DNA of 64,000 nt from Candidatus Pacearchaeota archaeon (GTDB lineage Archaea > Nanobdellota > Nanobdellia > Pacearchaeales > GW2011-AR1): positions 11,456-75,455 of the forward strand of contig JBAZNI010000001.1 in the NCBI GenBank assembly GCA_041649295.1. Direction: 5' to 3'. The notes under the pieces were generated by a model that worked only from the letters and a program-made list of their open reading frames with translations, ran no database searches and was not told the origin of the DNA. The translations under genes were made by a program, and so were the position numbers. Of the stretch, positions 4,043-48,090 are shown piece by piece. Each line of letters starts with the position of its first letter. Within the stretch, counting starts at the first letter, position 1.

Positions 4043-5509
4043 ATGAGGCTGAAAGCAAAATTTTCTAACTGGTTTGCTGGAAAAGCAATTGTCATTCTTA
4101 ATGAAGCTTCTGCAGCAAAAATTAATGCACATGTTGGCGACAGGGTTTTGATTAGTTCTAAATCTGGAGATGCTGTTGCAGTCATGGATATTTCAAATCA
4201 GCTTGTTGATGACAGTCATGTTATTCTTTCTCAGGAGATTATTCCAGAATTGAATATAAGCAAAGGGCAGTTTGTTGATGTTGAAGTAGCAAAAAATCCA
4301 AAAATGTCGTATATTATAAATAAAAAATTAGATGGAAAATCTCTTTCTGAAAGAGAAATATTTCTTATAGTGAATTCAATTGTGAAAAACGAGCTTTCTG
4401 AAATAGAAATTGCCTTCTTTATTTCAGCAGTTTATAAATCTGGAATGAGTTTAGATGAAATAGGATATTTTACAAAAGCTATTTTTAATACCGGAGACAA
4501 ACTTAGCATTAATGGAAAGTATATTGTTGACAAGCATTGTATAGGAGGGTTAGCAGGAAATAGAACAACCCCAATTATAGTTTCAATATGCTCTTCTGAA
4601 GGATTGATTTTCCCAAAAAATTCTTCAAGAGCGATAACTTCAGCAGCAGGGACTGCAGATGTTATGGAGACAATATGCAAAGTGGATTTTAATGAAAAAG
4701 AGATTAAACAAATTGTTAAAAAAACAGGGGCGTGCCTTGTTTGGGGGGGTTCACTGGGATTTGCCCCTGCAGATGATAAAATAATAAGTGTTGAAAGAAT
4801 GATAAACATTGACCCGGAACCAAACTTAATTGCTTCAATAATTTCAAAAAAACTTGCAGCAGGAAGCAAATACATATTAATTGATATTCCCTTCGGGGTG
4901 CACGCAAAAGTTTCAAAAAAACAAGGGCTTGCTCTTAAGAGGAAATTTGAAACTCTTGGGAGAAGATTTAATCTCAAATTAAAGTGCGTTCTCACTCCAG
5001 GAAATGAACCAATTGGAAATGGAATTGGCCCAGCTTTAGAAATCAGAGATGTGATATCTGTTTTAAATGGCGATGGCCCTCAGGACTTAAGAGACAAATC
5101 ATTATTTTTGTCAGGCGAAATTTTTGAATTAGCGGGAAAATGCAAAAAAGGTGAAGGAAAGATAATGGCAAGGCAAGCACTTGATTCTGGAAGGGCATTT
5201 AATCAATTTAGCAAGATTGTTGAAGCCCAGCACGGAAAAATTCAAAAAGTTCCACTTGGAAAATTTTCAAGAACAATAAAATCCTCTAAAAATGGAAAAA
5301 TAGCCTCGATAAATAATAAAGATATAAATTTAATTGCGCGCATTTCAGGATGCCCAAAAGATAAAAGAGCAGGAATTTATCTTCATGTTCATGTAGGGTA
5401 TAAAGTAAAAAAGTTTCAGCCATTACTGACAATTTATTCCCAATCCCTAAGCAAATTAAATCAGGCAGTGGAATTTTACAAAGAGCACGAGACAATTAAA
5501 TTTGGTTAG
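4043..5509 (+). CDS. deoA: AMP phosphorylase / thymidine phosphorylase family protein
   Basis: 488 aa. It has the archaeal-type N-terminal extra domain (VILNEASAAKINAHVGDRVLI) followed by HCIGGLAGNRTTPIIV and SSRAITSAAGTADVME motifs of the pyrimidine-nucleoside phosphorylase fold. Confidence 0.85.
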   Translation: MRLKAKFSNWFAGKAIVILNEASAAKINAHVGDRVLISSKSGDAVAVMDISNQLVDDSHVILSQEIIPELNISKGQFVDVEVAKNPKMSYIINKKLDGKSLSEREIFLIVNSIVKNELSEIEIAFFISAVYKSGMSLDEIGYFTKAIFNTGDKLSINGKYIVDKHCIGGLAGNRTTPIIVSICSSEGLIFPKNSSRAITSAAGTADVMETICKVDFNEKEIKQIVKKTGACLVWGGSLGFAPADDKIISVERMINIDPEPNLIASIISKKLAAGSKYILIDIPFGVHAKVSKKQGLALKRKFETLGRRFNLKLKCVLTPGNEPIGNGIGPALEIRDVISVLNGDGPQDLRDKSLFLSGEIFELAGKCKKGEGKIMARQALDSGRAFNQFSKIVEAQHGKIQKVPLGKFSRTIKSSKNGKIASINNKDINLIARISGCPKDKRAGIYLHVHVGYKVKKFQPLLTIYSQSLSKLNQAVEFYKEHETIKFG

Positions 5510-5605
5510 TTAGATACCAGACAATAAAAATAGGATTTAGATTAAAATAATAGCTATCTTTCTAAATACTTAAATAAGTAATAGCGTACTCAAAATTTAA
5601 TTAAT

Positions 5606-5631
5606 TATGAATACGCCGACGCCCTGTCCGG
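5606..5631 (-). repeat. duplicate 1 of the tRNA-Ser 3' end plus its 3' flank
   Basis: tatgaatacgccgacgccc is identical to 5759-5777 (the last 11 nt of the tRNA plus 8 nt of downstream flank). It continues as ctgtccgg, as in duplicate 2. Confidence 0.7.
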
Positions 5632-5694
5632 TCGCCAGCTACCTAAGTTTTCTTTGACTCTAAGAACTTTATTTTTCTAAAAGAAAGTTGTTAA

Positions 5695-5712
5695 CGCCGA
5701 CGCCCTGTCCGG
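5695..5712 (-). repeat. duplicate 2 of the tRNA-Ser 3' end
   Basis: cgccgacgccctgtccgg is identical to 5614-5631 and shares cgccgacgccc with the real tRNA 3' end at 5767-5777. Confidence 0.7.
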
Positions 5713-5766
5713 CTCGTCGTCTAGATGATATTCACAGCATAATCAACTTTCAGTTGACTATGAATA

Positions 5767-5960
5767 CGCCGACGCCCGGAATCGAACCGGGGGGCCCCGG
5801 AGGGCTCTGGTATCTTGAGTTTCACTTTCTCTCCAAGGAGGGGTGTGTGAGAGCCAGGAGAATCTATGATTCTCTGGCCCAGAGAACATGTTTGTTCTCT
5901 AGGGGGAACTACGTTCCCTTCATTCTCAAGCCAGATGCAATACCACTATGCGACGTCGGC
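5767..5960 (-). tRNA. tRNA-Ser (anticodon UGA) with a ~113-nt intron in the anticodon loop
   Basis: Folded by hand. Acceptor GCCGACG/CGTCGGC with discriminator G; D arm GCA-TAGTGGTAT-TGC; anticodon stem TCTGG/CCAGA with loop CTTGAG.A. Long variable arm GCCC-TCCG-GGGC; T arm CCCGG-TTCGATT-CCGGG. Exon 1 is about 5925-5960 and exon 2 about 5767-5811. Intron sequence CTCAAG pairs with the anticodon-loop CTTGAG, as expected around a bulge-helix-bulge site. No CCA is encoded. Confidence 0.75.
5835..5929. repeat. three-hairpin structured element, copy A (inside the tRNA-Ser intron, antisense to the tRNA)
   Basis: aaggaggggtgtgtgagagcc-aggagaat(ctatg)attctctggc-ccagagaaca(tgtt)tgttctctaggg-gggaac(tac)gttccc...ttctcaa is collinear with 35796-35884 and, reverse-complemented, with 47215-47290. 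Confidence 0.7.
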
Positions 5961-6099
5961 ATGATAATTATGTTAGAATTTGAGACTTTTTAAAGATTGA
6001 TATTCAGTTAAATTATAAATTTAGCGGACAATTATATCTCATAATTTATCCATGTTAAGACATTGAAAGATTATTAAACTATCAGTTATTATTAACTTT

Positions 6100-6708
6100 A
6101 TGAAAATCTATAAACAAGAAACTGATAAATCTTGTGGGATTGCTTGTCTAAGGAGTATTTTAAACCATTATGGAAATAATTTTTCTGAAAAAGATATTTG
6201 GGATAAACACAGTCCCTTTCAAACTAAAAGTGAAGGAATTAGAAATCCAATTTTAAATTTAGGAGTAACTGCACTTAAATTCGGTTTTGATGTGACTTAT
6301 ATTGGATACAATCCAATTATCACAAATAATAATCATTCAGACGATTTAAAAAAATCTCTTCAAGAAAAATCAAAAACCTATTTTGATTATGGGAAGTTTT
6401 ATGTTGAAGAAGCACTAAAGTTCTTAGAATTAAAAGGAAAATTAAAAATAGAAAAATTGAATATAGAAAAAATTAAGAAGATAATTGATGAAAACAAATT
6501 TGCTTTGGTTGAAATTAAACCTGCATTTATTAATAAAAATGGCTCAATAAATATGAATCATAAGGTCATCATTGTAGGTTATACTAAGAAAGGATTTAAA
6601 ATTCTTAATCCCTCAGATGCAAAAGAGCACCTTTGGGATTTTGATACTTTTTTATTGGCTTTTTATGCTGCGACTCCTGAATTGTTGATTATTAAAAACA
6701 AAAAGTAA
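6100..6708 (+). CDS. stand-alone peptidase C39-like (papain-fold cysteine peptidase) domain protein
   Basis: 202 aa. The N-terminal QETDKSCGIACLRSILNHYG matches the Q...C-G-x-A-C-L catalytic-Cys signature of C39-type domains, with a later HKVIIVGY His region. Confidence 0.55.
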   Translation: MKIYKQETDKSCGIACLRSILNHYGNNFSEKDIWDKHSPFQTKSEGIRNPILNLGVTALKFGFDVTYIGYNPIITNNNHSDDLKKSLQEKSKTYFDYGKFYVEEALKFLELKGKLKIEKLNIEKIKKIIDENKFALVEIKPAFINKNGSINMNHKVIIVGYTKKGFKILNPSDAKEHLWDFDTFLLAFYAATPELLIIKNKK

Positions 6709-6802
6709 ATTATGTTCCACTTTTGAGCTCGAATTTATAAAACCATTGCAATAGAATTAGCACTACAACTGCAGGTTTATCGTAAACAGCTTAAAATTAA
6801 AA

Positions 6803-16485: not shown

Positions 16486-16558
16486 TGTTTATAAATGTTT
16501 TGGCCGGGTTTCATAAGCTTTAACTTGTTACTATTTATAAGTTAATACCGATAGAAAT

Positions 16559-16567
16559 GTTTATAAA
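16559..16567 (+). promoter_or_regulatory. TATA-box-like element for the DGR target gene
   Basis: tttataaat lies 22 nt upstream of the ATG at 16590, which argues that the track start at 16557 is too early. Confidence 0.45.
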
Positions 16568-16589
16568 TATATATTTTCTAGAAAAAGTT

Positions 16590-17396
16590 ATGGTAAAATT
16601 AATTCCAAGAGAAATAAAAGAAGCAAATTGGCCAGAAGCAAGAGAATTAAATAATGAAGAACAGCAAAATTATGGGTCTGCTGTTGCTGGATTTACTTCA
16701 AAAACAGCAAGAGATATTTTAGGAAAGGAATCAACATTATTTAGAATTTTATTATTAAACAAAATTGGAATAAGAACCGGAACAATTCCCGAATTAGATT
16801 TGCTTTGGCATAATACTCCAAATTTTATAAAAGGGCATTATTGTGACTCAAGAGAAGTTGTTTTAAGAAGTGCAGAAGATCCTTATAAACCTAATGTCCA
16901 AATTGCAAAAGACTTGGCTAAATTAGCTGAAGTGCATACACTAACAACTCCCTTGATATTAAAAGGTTTGATTCCTGTTGAAACAGATGATGAAAACTAT
17001 GCTCAATATTGCATGAGACTTGATAGAGGAGATAATTTTGAGGTTATTCCCGCTCCCGACTTTTCATTTAAAAATGATCGAAGAAAATTAAAAGCAATTA
17101 ATCCAGACTATACTATTGAGTGGTGTGAAGCTGAAGAAGAAGGAACAAGAACATTTTATGCAAAGAATGGTGGAGTTTCGTGGGTGTGCCTGCGTGACTC
17201 CAATGTCGACTCCGATTGGAGCGATTTTGATGACTCTAGTAGCAGCGGCAGGGTGGTTGTTGTCGACGCCGAAGGCGTCGTGCCGAAAAATTTAAGCAAT
17301 TACATGAATAGGTTAAAAGAACAAAAAGCAGCCCAAATTGCAGAAATTGAAGCAAGATATCAAAAGGCATGTAATTTAATGTATGGAAAAAAATAA
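16590..17396 (+). CDS. DGR variable (target) protein, no signal peptide, VR near the C-terminus
   Basis: VR encodes GVSWVCLRDSNVDSDWSDFDDSSSSGRVV, whereas TR in the same frame reads IVSRANLNDSNVNSNWSDFDNSNSNGRMA (AAY Asn codons). The GG.SW....R....GxRVV pattern resembles C-type-lectin/FGE-like DGR scaffolds. A 46-aa helical-looking tail follows the VR. Confidence 0.8.
   Translation: MVKLIPREIKEANWPEARELNNEEQQNYGSAVAGFTSKTARDILGKESTLFRILLLNKIGIRTGTIPELDLLWHNTPNFIKGHYCDSREVVLRSAEDPYKPNVQIAKDLAKLAEVHTLTTPLILKGLIPVETDDENYAQYCMRLDRGDNFEVIPAPDFSFKNDRRKLKAINPDYTIEWCEAEEEGTRTFYAKNGGVSWVCLRDSNVDSDWSDFDDSSSSGRVVVVDAEGVVPKNLSNYMNRLKEQKAAQIAEIEARYQKACNLMYGKK
17174..17256 (+). repeat. DGR variable repeat (VR)
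   Basis: Ungapped 83-nt hand alignment to 17560-17642 gives 14 mismatches. In 12 of them TR has A and VR has another base; in none does VR have A against a non-A in TR. Confidence 0.8.
17264..17280 (+). promoter_or_regulatory. GC-rich hairpin cgacgcc-GAA-ggcgtcg just 3' of VR (candidate DGR target-recognition hairpin)
   Basis: Perfect 7-bp stem with a GAA loop, starting 8 nt after the VR/TR homology ends. No equivalent follows TR. Confidence 0.5.
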
Positions 17397-17559
17397 AAAG
17401 GTAACTTTAATCCTAAGATTCCTAGCCAATTATGGTTAGGCCACAAGCCATTTAATAGTGCTTTTTAAAAGCCATGAAATTCAACCGCAACAATTAGTAG
17501 TTATGATATGAATGCGAAACTTGAAGTGGTGGTGATTTACTTTTAATTAATTGGCTAAT

Positions 17560-17642
17560 AGTTTCGAGGGCGAACCTGAATGACTCCAATGTCAACTCCA
17601 ATTGGAGCGATTTTGATAACTCGAATAGCAACGGCAGAATGG
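17560..17642 (+). repeat. DGR template repeat (TR)
   Basis: Non-coding copy of VR, 22 nt upstream of the RT start codon. It is rich in AAC/AAT triplets in the VR reading frame. Confidence 0.8.
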
Positions 17643-17664
17643 CTTAACAATTGGTTAGTTTATA

Positions 17665-18717
17665 ATGAAAACTTATAAAAATCTTTACCCGCAAATTTAC
17701 AATCTATCTAATTTAATTCTTGCTTGGAGAGAAGCAAGAAAAGGCAAAACTAAAAAACCTTATGTAATAGAATTTGAAAAAGATACAATTGGAAACTTAT
17801 TAGCCTTGCAGGAAGAATTAAAAAATCAAACTTACTCTCCAAAGCCATTGGTAACTTTTATTTTGCGAGACCCAAAAACACGCAAAATCTCTAAAGCAGA
17901 TTTTAGAGACAGAATAGTCCATCATGCCATTGTAAGAATTTTAGAGCCAATTTTTGACAAAACTTTCATTTATGATTCTTGTGCAAATAGAAAAAGAAAA
18001 GGAAATCTATTTGCAATTAAAAGATTTAAGAAATTTTTAAAAAAGGTTTCAAGAAATGGAAAAACTAATGGTTGGTTTAATGAAAATCAGGTAAAAGGAT
18101 ATTGTTTCAAAGCAGACATAAAACATTATTTTGAGGAAGTTAATCATGGAATTCTTTTAGATATAATTCAAAAAAAGGTAAAAGACGAACAAACTATTTG
18201 GTTAATAGAGCAGATTATAAAAAATTATGATAATAAAGAAAAAGGAATGCCCTTGGGAAATTTAACATCACAATTTTTTGCAAATGTTTATCTTAATGAC
18301 TTAGATTATTTTGTTAAGCATAAGTTAAAAGCAAAGTATTATATTCGATATGTTGATGACTTTGTCTTGTTGAGCAGTTCTAAAGTTCAATTAAAATTAT
18401 GGATGGGAGATATCGAACATTTTTTAATAGATAAGTTAACCCTCGAATTACATAAACAAAAATCAAAGATTACCTCCCTATCAAGAGGAATAGACTTTGT
18501 TGGTTTTAGAAACTTTTATTATTATAGATTAGTCAGAACAAGAAATATTAGGAACATACGAAATAAAATTAATGATTATAAAAAGTTTAAAATTCCTTAT
18601 GTTAACATATTGGATAGTTTTCAAGGATGGCAGGCATATGCAATGTGGGCAGATGCTTATAGATTGAGAGAGAATCTTTTAAAACAAATAATTTTAAATA
18701 CTCCCCCATCTCCATAA
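17665..18717 (+). CDS. DGR-type reverse transcriptase
   Basis: 350 aa. RT motifs are PKPLVTFILRDPKTRKISKADFRDRIVHHAI, FKADIKHYF, MPLGNLTSQFFANVYLNDLD (the GxxxSQ hallmark of DGR RTs) and YIRYVDDF. There is no maturase or endonuclease tail. Confidence 0.88.
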   Translation: MKTYKNLYPQIYNLSNLILAWREARKGKTKKPYVIEFEKDTIGNLLALQEELKNQTYSPKPLVTFILRDPKTRKISKADFRDRIVHHAIVRILEPIFDKTFIYDSCANRKRKGNLFAIKRFKKFLKKVSRNGKTNGWFNENQVKGYCFKADIKHYFEEVNHGILLDIIQKKVKDEQTIWLIEQIIKNYDNKEKGMPLGNLTSQFFANVYLNDLDYFVKHKLKAKYYIRYVDDFVLLSSSKVQLKLWMGDIEHFLIDKLTLELHKQKSKITSLSRGIDFVGFRNFYYYRLVRTRNIRNIRNKINDYKKFKIPYVNILDSFQGWQAYAMWADAYRLRENLLKQIILNTPPSP

Positions 18718-35365: not shown

Positions 35366-35795
35366 CCTCCTTTCAATTGTCTGTTATTTTTCGATACAAA
35401 GTATCGGCATACTGGTTAAAGTTTATTTCTTTTTAGATTCTTCAGCCAGCAGATTATAACAATCCCTTATCAGGAATGTTGTCGTCGGCAGATATGTTAA
35501 CAATATGTTATATTTTTTTTCATTTATAAATCTTTTGCTATAAACCTTAATTTTAACAAAAAAACACTCAAAAATTGGGCATTTATTTATAAACCTTTCG
35601 TTGTTACTCCATTATTAAACAAATTCTAAACAGCTAAAATAGAAACATTTATTAACATATATGATATTATTACACATATATGTTTTTTCCAAACACATAT
35701 TATAGATAGAATGTATAAATATAGGGTTAAAAATACCATATATTGTTTATCGAAGATAAAATAAAAATACCAAATTAAATGAAAAACATATAAAA

Positions 35796-35884
35796 AGGAA
35801 AGTGTGTGAGAGCCTAGAGAATAAAATATTCTCTGGCCCAGAGAACAAGTATGTTCTCTTGGGAAAACCTTCGGTTATCTTCAA
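35796..35884 (+). repeat. three-hairpin structured element, copy B (5' leader of the wHTH regulator gene)
   Basis: aaggaaagtgtgtgagagcc-tagagaat(aaaat)attctctggc-ccagagaaca(agta)tgttctcttggg-aaaacc(ttc)ggttat-cttcaa, ending at the ATG at 35885. Collinear with 5835-5929. Confidence 0.65.
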
Positions 35885-36244
35885 ATGGCAGAAAAAACAA
35901 GAATAATTGACATTTATGAAAAAACAGGAACATTTACTTCAGTTTTTAGAAGATTTACAGGTGAAAAAAAAGACTATAATTATGATGATTTAGCTGTATT
36001 AAGAAGGTTATTATCTAATGAAAAAGCACGTATTCTTCACGCTATAAAAAACCAAAAACCCCTCTCTATATATGCTTTGGCAAAGTTTCTTCATAGAGAC
36101 TTTAAGTCTGTAAGAGAAGATATTCTCTTGCTTAAGAAATTTGGGTTTATTGACTTAATTCAGGAAAAATCAGGAAAGACAAATAGGATAAATCACCGCC
36201 CGGTAATTTCTGCAACAACTGTAAACATAGTGATTAGGATTTAA
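35885..36244 (+). CDS. winged-helix transcriptional regulator (archaeal MarR/ArsR-like, COG4190-style)
   Basis: 119 aa. LSNEKARILHAIKNQKPLSIYALAKFLHRDFKSVREDILLLKKFGFIDL is an HTH plus wing pattern. Confidence 0.6.
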   Translation: MAEKTRIIDIYEKTGTFTSVFRRFTGEKKDYNYDDLAVLRRLLSNEKARILHAIKNQKPLSIYALAKFLHRDFKSVREDILLLKKFGFIDLIQEKSGKTNRINHRPVISATTVNIVIRI

Positions 36245-45299: not shown

Positions 45300-47192
45300 C
45301 TATCCTACCTCATTCGTTGCCTTTGTTGTGCTTTCACTATCAGTGTCTGTAGTAGTCTCTGTATTTGTTGAAAACTCTCCGCCGGTGCTTCCCCCGAACT
45401 GCTGTTTGGTATCAACTTCTGCTGCTTTCTTTTCATCTTCTGTTCCTGTTTTCTCACCTGATTTTGAAATTGTTACTCTGAAACCGCCATCAACATATTT
45501 TCCTATATAATTTCTGTCACTTCCACAATCTCCGTAATTTGTGCATAATCTGTTAACTTGGAAAGCTGTTAGTGGTTCTAAACATTCGCAGTTCTCAACA
45601 CATGTTCCGTCTCCCTTGCCCCATAATTTTTTTTCATATTTTACAATGCAAGATTGAGATGCTAAATCACACTGGTTTTCACTGCCTTCATCCCAGAAAG
45701 AAATTCCAGGAGCAACATCTGGAACACATCTCCAGTTCCGATTGTCTTCTTCAACATTTTGTTCTAATTTAAGCATGCTCCCAATTAACCCCTCATTAAT
45801 GCTTCCGATTGTCTGTGCAAGTATATCTTCTTCTGTTATTTTTTCTATTAATATTGGAACCCACTTGCAGTCTCTTTTATCTGTGTTGCGACAGTCTCTA
45901 GAGCTATTTTGCATAATGCAATCCTCCCACCTGTTAGCAACACATCCAGCTTGGGCAAAATCCTCTTTTTCCCCAATAGTGTCTTGAACGCAAACTTCTT
46001 TCCTATAATCATCACAAGGCTCAACAATTTCTTCACTTAAGAAACATATATGCCTGAAATGCCTGCTTCCAGGAGCATCGCTATCTTCTTTTCCAGAATC
46101 ATAAACACACCACGATTCCCCATTTTTGTAATCTTTTCCATTATATGTATCATAACAGTTTAAATCAGAGCAGATAAAACTCCCATATGTCGGCTTTCTG
46201 CTTCCTGCGGATTTACAAATGCTTCCTTCAAGATAATTGCAGTTTCCACAGCTCTTAGATTCTGCATTTGCAGAATTACTGCCTCCCCCACAACTTTCAT
46301 CTTTAGGAACAACCTTAGCCCAGTAAGCAACATCATTTATTTTAGAAGCGTCGTAAATATTTGCAGGATTCCCGCATGTGTCGATAAAATAAACTTCATC
46401 TTTGCCTTCAATACAGACAGTTTCTTTAGTTTTTTCGCAGATAGTGTTTAATTCCTGTGCTGTGCATAAGTAATTTTTATGAAAAACAATAGAAGATGTA
46501 TTTGTAGTGCCTTTTACACTTTCAGAATTGCATTCAGCTCTTGTAGTAAATTTGCATGTTGTCTGGTAATCAGATTCAAAAACACATGCACCAACATCCT
46601 GCGAACTTGCTAATGCAATGCAAGACAATTCATCTGCAACATTTTTCCTAAAATCAGTTATTAATCCATAATATCCAGATAATTTTTTGCATCTTACTAA
46701 TGGAACATAAGCTGCCTGCTGCCCTAGAACGCAACATCCTAATTCGCATTTTGGAGTTGCTTTGCAGTCAGCACCTTCATCCCACTCTCCTCCAGAACTA
46801 ACACAGGCTTCTCTTGGAACATTTTCCATACAAACACCTTCATCAGAATCATAACAACATCCTCTTTTGCAGAATGAAGTTGCTTCGCACGAAGTCGGAG
46901 TTTTTTGAAATTTAGCATCGCATTGTTCTAACGGGGAATTCTGGCAATAAGCTCCTGATAAAGTTTTTTCACAGCAATAACTAACTTCAACAGCAGAAGT
47001 CATCTGCATAGTTAATACTAAAATTAAATATAGTGATAATGTGAAGACAGCTAATTTAAAATAAGCACTATTAACTTTTAAGCCAGCTCTTTTTCTCATA
47101 TTGTTAATTGTTTTACTGCTCTTATTAATTTTTAGTCTCTCAATTATACTATTTTTTTCCATCTTAAATATTTCTATACTCTTATTTGCCAT
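45300..47192 (-). CDS. large Cys-rich secreted protein, type A
   Basis: 630-aa ORF. The likely real start is MRKRAG at 47099, which places the signal peptide (LAVFTLSLYLILVLTMQMTSA) at the N-terminus. It is collinear with residues ~50-545 of the 48251-52171 product (GCCYDSDEGVC / GCCFDTEEGLC; ELSCIALASSQDVGACVF / ELSCIESTQSLEKGACRF; EVYFIDTCGNPANIYD / EVYWFDSCGNPENIYD). Confidence 0.7.
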   Translation of the reverse strand: MANKSIEIFKMEKNSIIERLKINKSSKTINNMRKRAGLKVNSAYFKLAVFTLSLYLILVLTMQMTSAVEVSYCCEKTLSGAYCQNSPLEQCDAKFQKTPTSCEATSFCKRGCCYDSDEGVCMENVPREACVSSGGEWDEGADCKATPKCELGCCVLGQQAAYVPLVRCKKLSGYYGLITDFRKNVADELSCIALASSQDVGACVFESDYQTTCKFTTRAECNSESVKGTTNTSSIVFHKNYLCTAQELNTICEKTKETVCIEGKDEVYFIDTCGNPANIYDASKINDVAYWAKVVPKDESCGGGSNSANAESKSCGNCNYLEGSICKSAGSRKPTYGSFICSDLNCYDTYNGKDYKNGESWCVYDSGKEDSDAPGSRHFRHICFLSEEIVEPCDDYRKEVCVQDTIGEKEDFAQAGCVANRWEDCIMQNSSRDCRNTDKRDCKWVPILIEKITEEDILAQTIGSINEGLIGSMLKLEQNVEEDNRNWRCVPDVAPGISFWDEGSENQCDLASQSCIVKYEKKLWGKGDGTCVENCECLEPLTAFQVNRLCTNYGDCGSDRNYIGKYVDGGFRVTISKSGEKTGTEDEKKAAEVDTKQQFGGSTGGEFSTNTETTTDTDSESTTKATNEVG

Positions 47193-47214: not shown

Positions 47215-47290
47215 ATTCTCGCTTTTGTCTAATCTTTCCTAAAGAACATATTTGTTCTTTGAACAGAGAATTTTTAATTCTCTTGGTTAT
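47215..47290 (-). repeat. three-hairpin structured element, copy C (between the pilin-like gene and the type-A Cys-rich gene)
   Basis: The minus strand reads ccaagagaat(taaaa)attctctgtt-caaagaaca(aata)tgttctttagg..., the same hairpin order and loop lengths as copies A and B. Hairpin 2 carries a compensated G:C to A:T change. Confidence 0.55.
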
Positions 47291-47298
47291 GGAAAAGA

Positions 47299-48090
47299 TT
47301 AATAACCATAACCTACAGGAAATACAAGACTCTTAACAGCAAAATTAAAACTTTCTTTGCTGTCTCTGTCTGAAACATAGTAAAGTGTCGAGCCATCACC
47401 CTGTTTTAACATTTCCACCCTGATGTTTGGATACATTGCCATATACACAACAGGGTCGCTGTTTCCAAATCTTGCCTCATAATTTAATATTGATGTTGAT
47501 ATCATTATTAAGTCATAATAATTGCTTTTAACAGACACTTCAAAAGGGCTGTCAAATCTGGCACTTGTCTCGCTTCTGCTTATTGTGATAGGATAATCAA
47601 TTATAAATTTTATTTCACTTGGCACAAATTCAAGAGTAAAATTAATATTTCCAGATGCAACAGAATAACCGCTTGCTTTCAGCTCTTTTTCAACCTGATT
47701 AATACAGCCAATTATTTCATCTTTAACAGCATCCTTTGCCTCTTTTTCTATACCTTGCAACAACAGGGGTTTTTGCATTGTGCATGTTTTATAATACTCA
47801 TTTGTATAGCAGAGATATTCTAATTTTTTGCCGTCGTGCATGTAAGCATGTTCAGGATTTGCACTTCCTCCTTGGGATAAAATCACATCAATCGAATTTT
47901 TAATTTGTGGATTTTTTTCAATGCAGTTTTTTAAATTAGAATTTACATCATATTCAATCCCAAAAACTCTGTTGACTATGCCTCTTCCCGAATCTGTAAA
48001 TGCAAAAAATAATATCAGCAATCCTACAATTACCACAGCAATTATTATAAATACAGTTACTTGTCCTTTTTTGCTTTTATTTAACACCAT
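47299..48090 (-). CDS. pilin-like protein (class III signal peptide), paralog of 52168-52941
   Basis: 263 aa. N-terminus NKSKKGQ/VTVFIIIAVVIVGLLILFF. Shared motifs with the paralog are YLCYT, EARFGNSDP/EAKYCNSDYP and FNFAVK/WGFAVR. Confidence 0.65.
   Translation of the reverse strand: MVLNKSKKGQVTVFIIIAVVIVGLLILFFAFTDSGRGIVNRVFGIEYDVNSNLKNCIEKNPQIKNSIDVILSQGGSANPEHAYMHDGKKLEYLCYTNEYYKTCTMQKPLLLQGIEKEAKDAVKDEIIGCINQVEKELKASGYSVASGNINFTLEFVPSEIKFIIDYPITISRSETSARFDSPFEVSVKSNYYDLIMISTSILNYEARFGNSDPVVYMAMYPNIRVEMLKQGDGSTLYYVSDRDSKESFNFAVKSLVFPVGYGY

Follow-up and report, generated by a model that had tools for sequence, protein, structure and literature searches.

A dispersed twin-hairpin repeat in the intron of a tRNA-Ser(UGA) gene from a Pacearchaeota-like archaeon

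A tRNA-Ser(UGA) gene with a 113-nt intron

The gene described here encodes tRNA-Ser(UGA) and is interrupted by a long intron, ~80% of which (about 90 of 113 nt) corresponds to a single copy of a dispersed repeat made of two adjacent hairpins. It lies on the reverse strand at positions 5767-5960 of a 64-kb stretch of DNA (hereafter the window), which has a G+C content of ~32% and codes for archaeal ribosomal proteins (P0, P1, L1, L3, L4), FtsZ, PCNA, primase, an S-layer protein and similar genes. Homologues of the window proteins carry the names Candidatus Pacearchaeota or Nanoarchaeota, and these names, together with the archaeal gene content, indicate that the window is chromosomal and stems from a Pacearchaeota-like member of the DPANN archaea. 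Two other samples yielded contigs (ENA ERZ27247363, Logan SRR8542065) that match the window at 100% identity over all regions of overlap. The sequence read from the source genome amounts to 74 kb of a 565-kb contig, i.e., the window and 10 kb in addition, the latter being a ribosomal protein cluster that holds no more copies of the repeat.

With introns allowed (ARAGORN -i), a tRNA-Ser(tga) is found at c[5766,5961] with a 113-nt intron (38,113) between positions 37 and 38. These coordinates are identical to those of the original prediction, made from the sequence alone, which had placed the intron at 5812-5924 and had proposed ARAGORN, among other programs, for intron and BHB calling. The 5' exon (5925-5960) covers tRNA positions 1-37, with the anticodon UGA at 5928-5926, and the 3' exon (5767-5811) carries the long variable arm, the T arm, the acceptor strand and the discriminator G. 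Excision of the intron restores a canonical cloverleaf, as had been anticipated, with four intact arms and an equally intact anticodon loop, long variable arm and discriminator. A TATA-box-like sequence on the same strand (CTTTAAAAAG, 5986-5995), 26-35 nt 5' of the mature tRNA end, is the putative promoter. ARAGORN in default mode reports a tRNA-Pro alone in the window and overlooks the tRNA-Ser(UGA), and a scan with Rfam at gathering score detects no tRNA at 5767-5960. Automated annotation of such genomes would hence list tRNA-Ser(UGA) as absent and, with an essential gene overlooked by default tRNA finders, these genomes would seem short of tRNAs.

In the minimum free energy fold of 5767-5960 (reverse strand; z-score -6.0), the cloverleaf is accompanied by a 6-bp helix between anticodon loop and intron, in which CUUGAG of the anticodon loop (5930-5925) pairs with CUCAAG at the 3' end of the intron (5819-5814). 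The 3' splice site falls inside a 3-nt bulge (A5813-U5812/A5811, the slash marking the site), and the 5' splice site is found at the junction of helix and multiloop. A strict bulge-helix-bulge (BHB) motif of the hBHBh' type (two 3-nt bulges with a 4-bp helix between them, and flanking helices) was not found at this intron, the BHB scan returning one relaxed motif that coincides with the true splice site. Of the BHB structure that the original prediction had sought, the relaxed form is therefore present and the strict form is not, and the motif is best modelled as a relaxed BHB (bulge-helix-loop). Such a motif is plausible here because the L3-loop splicing endonucleases of DPANN archaea are reported to be associated with relaxed BHB motifs and with numerous disrupted tRNA genes (PMC5829648). 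The splice-site helix is formed by the terminal ~23 nt of the intron, which include the helix-forming CUCAAGAU and lie outside the repeat; the length of this tail falls within the size range of the short introns found in relatives.

The tRNA-Ser(UGA) locus in related genomes

A scan of GTDB species genomes for the tRNA T arm and acceptor end yielded 35 loci (loci from relative genomes and metagenomes are designated by L numbers, L004 to L056). Across Pacearchaeota, the tRNA-Ser loci are syntenic with that of the window, between the AMP phosphorylase/AI-2E genes and the ribosomal P1-P0-L1 genes. Among the orthologous tRNA-Ser(UGA) genes, some have no intron and the others have one of 13-108 nt at 37/38; these introns are unrelated in sequence to the window intron and nearly all end in ...CAAG-NN/A (slash, splice site). 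At 113 nt, the window intron is the longest among the orthologues compared, which bears out its initial description as unusually long. The most similar exons are those of two intronless orthologues, L027 and L032: the 5' exon is 92.9% identical to both over 42 nt and the 3' exon 94% identical to L027 over 50 nt, and the flanking DNA is not conserved. The anticodon-intron helix and the 3' bulge are common to the window intron and the short introns of orthologues. Conserved exons and synteny, combined with variable and unrelated introns, argue for a functional tRNA-Ser gene whose intron content would turn over quickly.

The length of the intron and the lack of a strict hBHBh' motif would also fit a pseudogene, disrupted by insertion of the repeat and left unspliced, as would the degenerate tRNA fragments that adjoin the gene. 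We consider this extremely unlikely: the tRNA arms, anticodon loop and discriminator are intact, the exons are 93-94% identical to those of orthologues, and the gene occupies the conserved syntenic position of the tRNA-Ser(UGA) of the clade. Moreover, the intron sits exactly at 37/38 with the same helix and bulge as the short introns of orthologues, and the sequence is identical in the contigs of both other samples.

Two further observations were made on these loci. ARAGORN labels many of the intron-bearing orthologues wrongly as Ala, Thr or Leu tRNAs. Two genomes carry tRNA-Ser(UGA) introns that are homologous to each other (57 nt in L016, 3419-3475, and 67 nt in L041, 5320-5386; 80% identity over 40 nt) and unrelated to the window intron.

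A twin-hairpin repeat fills most of the intron

The repeat is present three times in the window. Copy A (5835-5929, forward strand, i.e., antisense to the tRNA-Ser; nhmmer 8.6e-25; 75.3 bits with CM R1, the covariance model built from the copies) consists of a left flank, GTGTGTGAGAGCC, a twin-hairpin core (5854-5903) and a third hairpin, GGGAACTACGTTCCC. Copy B lies at 35796-35884 on the forward strand (core 35813-35862; 81.6 bits) and copy C at 47215-47290 on the reverse strand (core 47238-47286; 72.1 bits). The nhmmer E-values of the three copies range from 1e-24 to 3e-14, and the only other matches in the window at E<1e-5 are self-matches on the reverse strand. A search for AGAGAAY-N3-9-RTTCTCT gave 4 occurrences in the window and 0 in 100 shuffles. 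Aligned over 82 nt, copies A and B have 80.5% identity (BLAST E 6e-13); they have in common the left flank, identical at 13 of 13 nt, and the weak third hairpin. Copy C shares with them the twin-hairpin core alone (73-88% core identity to the other copies) and has a different tail. The collinearity initially described between the intron, 35796-35884 and 47215-47290 thus holds in full for copy B, and in a weaker form, restricted to the core, for copy C.

The conserved core of ~50 nt reads CC.AGAGAAT-(3-5 nt loop)-ATTCTCTGG, one base, then CCAGAGAACA-(4 nt loop)-TGTTCTCT.GG, and therefore consists of two adjacent hairpins of ~24 nt with nearly the same stem (AGAGAAY...RTTCTCT). In an alignment of eight copies, 95.6% of the cells pair and 6 of 20 pairs display compensatory changes; none of 500 shuffles reaches the observed pairing, and slid partners pair at 33-54%. 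Hairpin formation thus appears to be maintained, given this level of pairing, the compensatory changes and the failure of both controls. The stems are palindromic, so that the same hairpins can form from either strand, as had been proposed from the sequence. Counting G.U versus A.C pairs (4 versus 2) gives no strand preference and is uninformative on the strand. Core identity among all copies is 73-90%, leaving out one diverged unit downstream of the tRNA-Ile gene in L046 (58-71%).

Rfam 15 gave no match to the repeat at gathering score (in 5500-6100, the best E-value was 0.84, and all hits scored far below the gathering scores of their families). A search for similarity to phages found none.

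The repeat in other genomes and in a second tRNA intron

A scan with the element pattern gave 0 matches in GTDB species genomes, 0 in viral contigs and 5 in JGI metagenome contigs, one of the latter (L048) being probably due to chance. In L046, a chromosomal contig (encoding TBP, MCM and DNA ligase), the twin-hairpin core lies inside a 110-nt intron of a tRNA-Ile(GAU) gene, again at 37/38 and here with a strict BHB. This core is identical to that of the window intron at 47 of 54 positions and has the opposite orientation relative to the tRNA, sense in tRNA-Ile and antisense in tRNA-Ser. The flanks of the L046 intron form a host hairpin, AACTTTCTTT...AAAGAAAGTT, of which an 'empty' version devoid of the twin hairpin (TAACAACTTTCTTTTAGAA...AAAGTTCTTAGAGTCAAAGAAA) is found just downstream of the window tRNA-Ser gene (5649-5693, reverse strand; BLAST to the L046 intron flanks, 18/19 and 22/22). 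A second 'empty' host hairpin is part of the tRNA-Lys(UUU) intron of L029, whose 5' hairpin resembles window 5649-5693. Because the same host hairpin is filled in L046 and empty at 5649-5693 and in L029, the twin hairpin of ~58 nt seems to mark a unit of insertion or deletion, the sites compared being non-orthologous and from different genomes.

The other copies are found in varied contexts. In L047, two copies lie in tandem between two genes, in antisense, starting 9 nt past a stop codon. L050 carries a copy in an intergenic spacer with 74% identity to the copy C site over 111 nt. We had taken this for an orthologue of the copy C site and withdrew the argument of orthologous conservation, as the flanking genes differ, which makes it a paralogue within one subfamily. 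In L056, a diverged copy is situated one spacer over, upstream of a 267-aa gene, and has the tail of copy C (AGATTAGACAAAA) in common. Building a covariance model from the copies had been suggested with the original prediction; the scan with CM R1 turned up further diverged members, including those of L015/L022 and one at a site in L029. The stems of the copies in L015/L022, L029 and L056 are diverged, so that the stem sequence is not uniform across genomes. Setting aside the copies retrieved by way of tRNA sequences, ~6 remain, of which 2 lie in tRNA introns; this proportion seems enriched, from small numbers.

Several arrangements involving tRNA fragments were seen beside these copies and beside the tRNA-Ser gene itself. 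In L015 (4220-4430) and L022 (305-515), a duplicated 5' fragment of tRNA-Ser, GCCGACGTGGGA/.../CAATGGTAC, upstream of an intact tRNA-Ser(UGA) gene, is split by a diverged twin hairpin and followed by an inverted copy of the D arm, CATTGTCCCAC; the arrangement is identical in these two contigs of the same metagenome-assembled genome (MAG). In the window, on the reverse strand downstream of the tRNA-Ser gene, a proximal copy of the tRNA-Ser 3' end, CCGGACAGGGCGTCGGCGT, is found at 5694-5712 (repeat family D2) and a distal one at 5613-5631 (families D1 and D2), the latter followed by a diverged copy of the 3' flank of the tRNA itself; these are two extra tRNA 3'-end fragments within the region 5583-5784. 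Units of 60-290 nt bounded by copies of tRNA 3' ends also follow the tRNA-Ser gene in L018, L019, L029, L039 and L044, and two of 87 nt follow the tRNA-Ile gene of L046. Such units may be relics of integration or of tandem duplication. We had considered a CTCAAG motif in the downstream units of L046 as a relic of a tRNA-Ser intron end, and rejected this since it aligns equally well to the T loop of tRNA-Ile (TTCAAAT). L029 belongs to a MAG that was deposited under the name Candidatus Woesearchaeota. Two of its introns, of 108 nt in tRNA-Ser(UGA) and of 69 nt in tRNA-Lys(UUU) (626-733 and 6647-6792), have a 36-nt segment in common (31/36, same orientation), i.e., intron sequence common to two tRNA species in a single genome.

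Copies B and C beside protein-coding genes

Copy B sits between a TATA-like box (CATATAAAAA, 35779-35788) and the gene for a 119-aa winged helix-turn-helix (wHTH) regulator of the HVO_A0114 family (35885-36244), its end abutting the ATG at 35885. Copy C starts 9 nt past the stop codon of a 263-aa gene (47299-48090). It is followed downstream by a TATA-like AT-rich stretch and a 630-aa gene (45300-47192), and 23 nt separate its end from the ATG at 47192, or 53 nt if the start of the public gene call is taken. The placement of both copies 5' of genes on the same strand, as first noted, is thus correct. The conclusion drawn from it, that the element belongs to mRNA leaders, does not hold up. The cluster of S-layer, regulator, four small genes and Fic is conserved across Pacearchaeota, and the element is absent upstream of the regulator orthologues at 65-76% amino acid identity (L053, L004, L006, L009), including the closest (76%). 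Copy B therefore looks like a recent, species-specific insertion. In addition, copy C follows closely on a stop codon, and the L047 copies are antisense between genes. BHB-dependent processing of non-tRNA transcripts, which had also been evoked, finds no support either: around the non-tRNA copies, the counts of BHB motifs were not clearly above those of shuffled flanks, and no convincing enclosing motif was detected.

The position of copy B raises the question of whether the palindromes are protein sites at the DNA level, either operators of a dimeric factor, such as the adjacent wHTH regulator, or core and arm sites of a recombinase tied to the tRNA-fragment repeats. The core does contain a tandem pair of dyad-symmetric sites built on one half-site, AGAGAA, copy B directly adjoins the regulator gene, and duplicated fragments of tRNA 3' and 5' ends, typical of integration sites, accompany several copies. 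Yet the compensatory changes are symmetric and include loop-adjacent positions, which fits hairpins rather than recognition of half-sites, no recombinase gene was found nearby among the open reading frames (ORFs) scanned, and the intron copies have no flanking direct repeats. We hence regard DNA-level sites as quite unlikely. The specific case of an operator of the adjacent regulator was rejected on the grounds that its orthologues have upstream regions without the element and that the changes in the stems fit hairpins. A different inverted repeat, TATAGGGT...ACCCTATA, is found upstream of the HVO_A0114-family regulator in several Pacearchaeota (window 35720-35760; ~2840-2990 in L004, L006 and L009); it is clean in L004 alone, and reads ACCTTATA in L006 and L009. 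This repeat may be the regulator's own operator.

Archaeal tRNA introns are often circularised after excision. The excised, probably circular, tRNA-Ser intron could act in trans as an antisense RNA on the copy B leader up to the start codon, and thereby couple tRNA processing to expression of the regulator. The intron RNA is the reverse complement of this leader (80% over 82 nt), and cofolding of the two gains -38 kcal/mol over the separate folds (-9 for the sense-strand control and -3.6 for copy C). However, both partners are locked in stable intramolecular hairpins, the tRNA-Ile copy of L046 is sense, so that antisense polarity is not a feature of the family, and copy B seems to be a recent acquisition of this species. 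Such a role is in our view very unlikely.

A short intron probably enlarged by insertion of the repeat

Collectively, these observations make it probable that this locus is a functional tRNA-Ser(UGA) gene whose canonical, relaxed-BHB intron was enlarged by a dispersed twin-hairpin repeat resembling repetitive extragenic palindromic (REP) sequences or miniature inverted-repeat transposable elements (MITEs). In this scenario, 5767-5960 would be the one functional locus for tRNA-Ser(UGA) in this Pacearchaeota-like archaeon, and the archaeal splicing endonuclease is expected to cut out its 37/38 intron through a relaxed BHB, with the 3' site in the 3-nt bulge beside a 4-6-bp anticodon-loop/intron helix and the 5' site at the helix/loop junction. 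The repeat itself would be a small, non-autonomous, lineage-specific and dispersed insertion unit, akin to REP and bacterial interspersed mosaic elements (BIMEs), to MITEs or to palindrome-associated transposable elements (PATEs). It occurs in either orientation, singly or in tandem, in intergenic spacers and within another hairpin as well as a tRNA fragment, and two different tRNAs have it in their introns. A tRNA intron would be one of the few harmless insertion sites in a compact genome, because it is spliced out while the ~8 nt that pair with the anticodon loop, which sit in the ~23-nt non-repeat tail, stay intact. We thus propose that the repeat inserted into a pre-existing short intron, that the enlarged intron is still spliced, and that the repeat spreads at the DNA level through a putative hairpin-recognising enzyme, which was not found in the sequence read.

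From the beginning, two alternatives had been put forward, namely the capture of a structured element as a tRNA intron and the spread of an intron-like element to mRNA leaders. The first fits best, as the core is found in the intergenic DNA of several relatives and, in opposite orientation, in a tRNA-Ile intron, and is absent from the orthologous tRNA-Ser genes. That the intron holds a copy of a dispersed element is retained from these proposals; the whole intron as the unit that moved is not, since its last ~23 nt are not repeat.

Several points weigh against this interpretation. Terminal inverted repeats or a target-site duplication could not be clearly defined: the ends of the repeat (CCNAGAGAA...TTCTCTNGG) are inverted, but equal the outer arms of the two hairpins, and the flanks are A-rich with no consistent duplication. 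Pfam scans of ~48 of 67 window ORFs and 9 L046 ORFs revealed no transposase, integrase or REP-associated tyrosine transposase (RAYT). Within the genome, core identity is 76-82%, which is low for a recently active mobile element, and this divergence, together with the compensatory changes, could instead reflect selection by the host for a hairpin with a function. Independent copies number only ~10, the comparison of filled and empty host hairpins involves non-orthologous sites, and many of the relative loci were fetched through a tRNA-Ser pattern, which biases the apparent link between repeat and tRNA genes. Finally, splicing of a relaxed BHB that encloses a 113-nt intron with four hairpins is assumed.

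Bacterial REPs stabilise transcripts, as exonuclease barriers. By analogy, the twin hairpin might be an RNA module selected by the host, a protein-binding site or an exonuclease barrier stabilising transcripts, which palindromic stems would render independent of orientation; on this view, it would be found in tRNA introns, in leaders and between cistrons because of its function, and not because it spreads selfishly. The maintenance of the stems by compensatory changes while loops and flanks diverge would suit such a module, and a core identity of 73-90% suggests old, maintained copies. The same holds for copies B and C and for that of L056, which immediately precede start codons and are oriented like the gene, and for the start of copy C and of the L047 copies at 9 nt past a stop codon. 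Still, the family as a whole shows no consistent position or orientation relative to genes, is missing from orthologous sites in relatives, matches no Rfam family and has G.U pairs without strand bias, and a function within a tRNA intron that is spliced out is hard to rationalise. We therefore hold a host-selected module to be rather unlikely, and favour insertion into a short intron.

A bolder possibility, which we think unlikely, is that a hitherto undescribed class of archaeal mobile elements, built of twin hairpins, preferentially lands or arises in tRNA genes. Copies are found in the canonical introns of two different tRNAs, within the 5' fragment of a tRNA and in tandem units that tRNA 3' ends delimit. 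If so, the gain and growth of tRNA introns in DPANN archaea would be driven by hairpin-recognising recombination or by retro-insertion, in a process that might draw on spliced introns in circular form and on the reverse transcriptases frequent in these genomes, and the excised intron might also be an antisense regulator of the leader of the regulator gene.

A diversity-generating retroelement in the window

The sole mobile-element gene met in the scanned ORFs encodes the reverse transcriptase of a diversity-generating retroelement (DGR), which is complete and spans 16557-18717 of the window. It comprises a target gene (16557-17396) with a variable repeat (VR) at 17174-17256, an Rfam RT-16 RNA (17421-17563, 104.7 bits), a template repeat (TR, ~17560-17642) and the reverse transcriptase gene (RVT_1, 17665-18717). 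Of the 14 mismatches between TR and VR, 12 are at template adenines.

Comparison with known systems

Canonical archaeal BHB introns are removed from tRNAs by the splicing endonuclease EndA, and the exons are joined by the ligase RtcB. The window intron resembles them in its location at 37/38, its anticodon-loop/intron helix, its 3-nt 3' bulge and the same design of the short introns of its orthologues. It differs in being far above the usual length, in consisting largely of a dispersed repeat, and in having a 5' splice site outside a 3-nt bulge. Functional RNAs are found in archaeal tRNA introns, as in the case of the C/D-box small RNA of the tRNA-Trp intron, which is likewise a structured RNA within an intron at the canonical position. 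Unlike the latter, the repeat has neither C/D boxes nor an Rfam match, is antisense in tRNA-Ser and sense in tRNA-Ile, and is also found outside introns.

With MITEs and the PATEs derived from the insertion sequences (IS) IS200/IS605, the repeat shares its small size, its lack of coding capacity, its richness in hairpins and the existence of filled and empty sites: copy B is absent in L053, L004, L006 and L009, and the host hairpin is filled in L046 and empty at 5649-5693 and in L029, these last sites being non-orthologous. But it has no demonstrable terminal inverted repeats beyond the hairpin arms and no clear target-site duplication, no parental IS or TnpA/TnpB gene was seen in the sequence read, and its core copies are not near-identical, as opposed to those of MITEs and PATEs.

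REP systems comprise a single-copy RAYT (a Y1/HUH transposase) per genome and tens to hundreds of REP copies. The likeness to bacterial REPs, BIMEs and REPINs (REP doublets forming hairpins) lies in palindromes of ~24 nt, adjacent units that resemble each other, an extragenic position in one orientation or the other, paired and sometimes tandem arrays (eight-copy alignment; L047), stems kept by compensatory change and a stem sequence that is non-uniform across genomes. Here, however, the host is archaeal, some copies are in tRNA introns, there are 3 copies in 64 kb, and no RAYT is among the ORFs scanned. Going by the title of PMC3733652, the head of REP palindromes is a conserved GTAG or CGTC tetranucleotide. 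Neither was found in the copies aligned here, which begin with CC-N-AGAGAA. If the repeat is mobile, it would be, to our knowledge, a rare REP/MITE-like system in DPANN archaea, no literature search having been aimed at MITEs in this group.

On the origin and growth of archaeal tRNA introns, the best-known evidence comes from Thermoproteales, with their intron 'transposition', and from a single population-genomic case, that of Caldiarchaeum. A concrete, sequence-defined unit of ~50 nt in a DPANN lineage suggests a model, open to testing, in which introns expand when small repeats insert at a 'safe', spliced site. Transposed tRNA introns have been reported in Thermoproteales (Fujishima et al. 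2010, as cited in PMC10714607), and a mobile-element model of tRNA gene disruption has been proposed in Caldiarchaeum (PMC3293823). Our case differs in that it concerns a DPANN lineage, and no recombinase-bearing element was seen in the sequence read. Unlike in Thermoproteales, the unit is an internal twin hairpin rather than an entire intron together with its BHB: the 3' tail of ~23 nt, which contributes to the BHB, lies outside of it, the orientation is opposite in the two tRNAs, and copies also occur outside tRNA genes, in both orientations. What these systems have in common with the present one are tRNA fragments scattered beside genes and related intron sequence in different tRNA species, be it Ser versus Ile across genomes (47/54) or Ser versus Lys within L029 (31/36).

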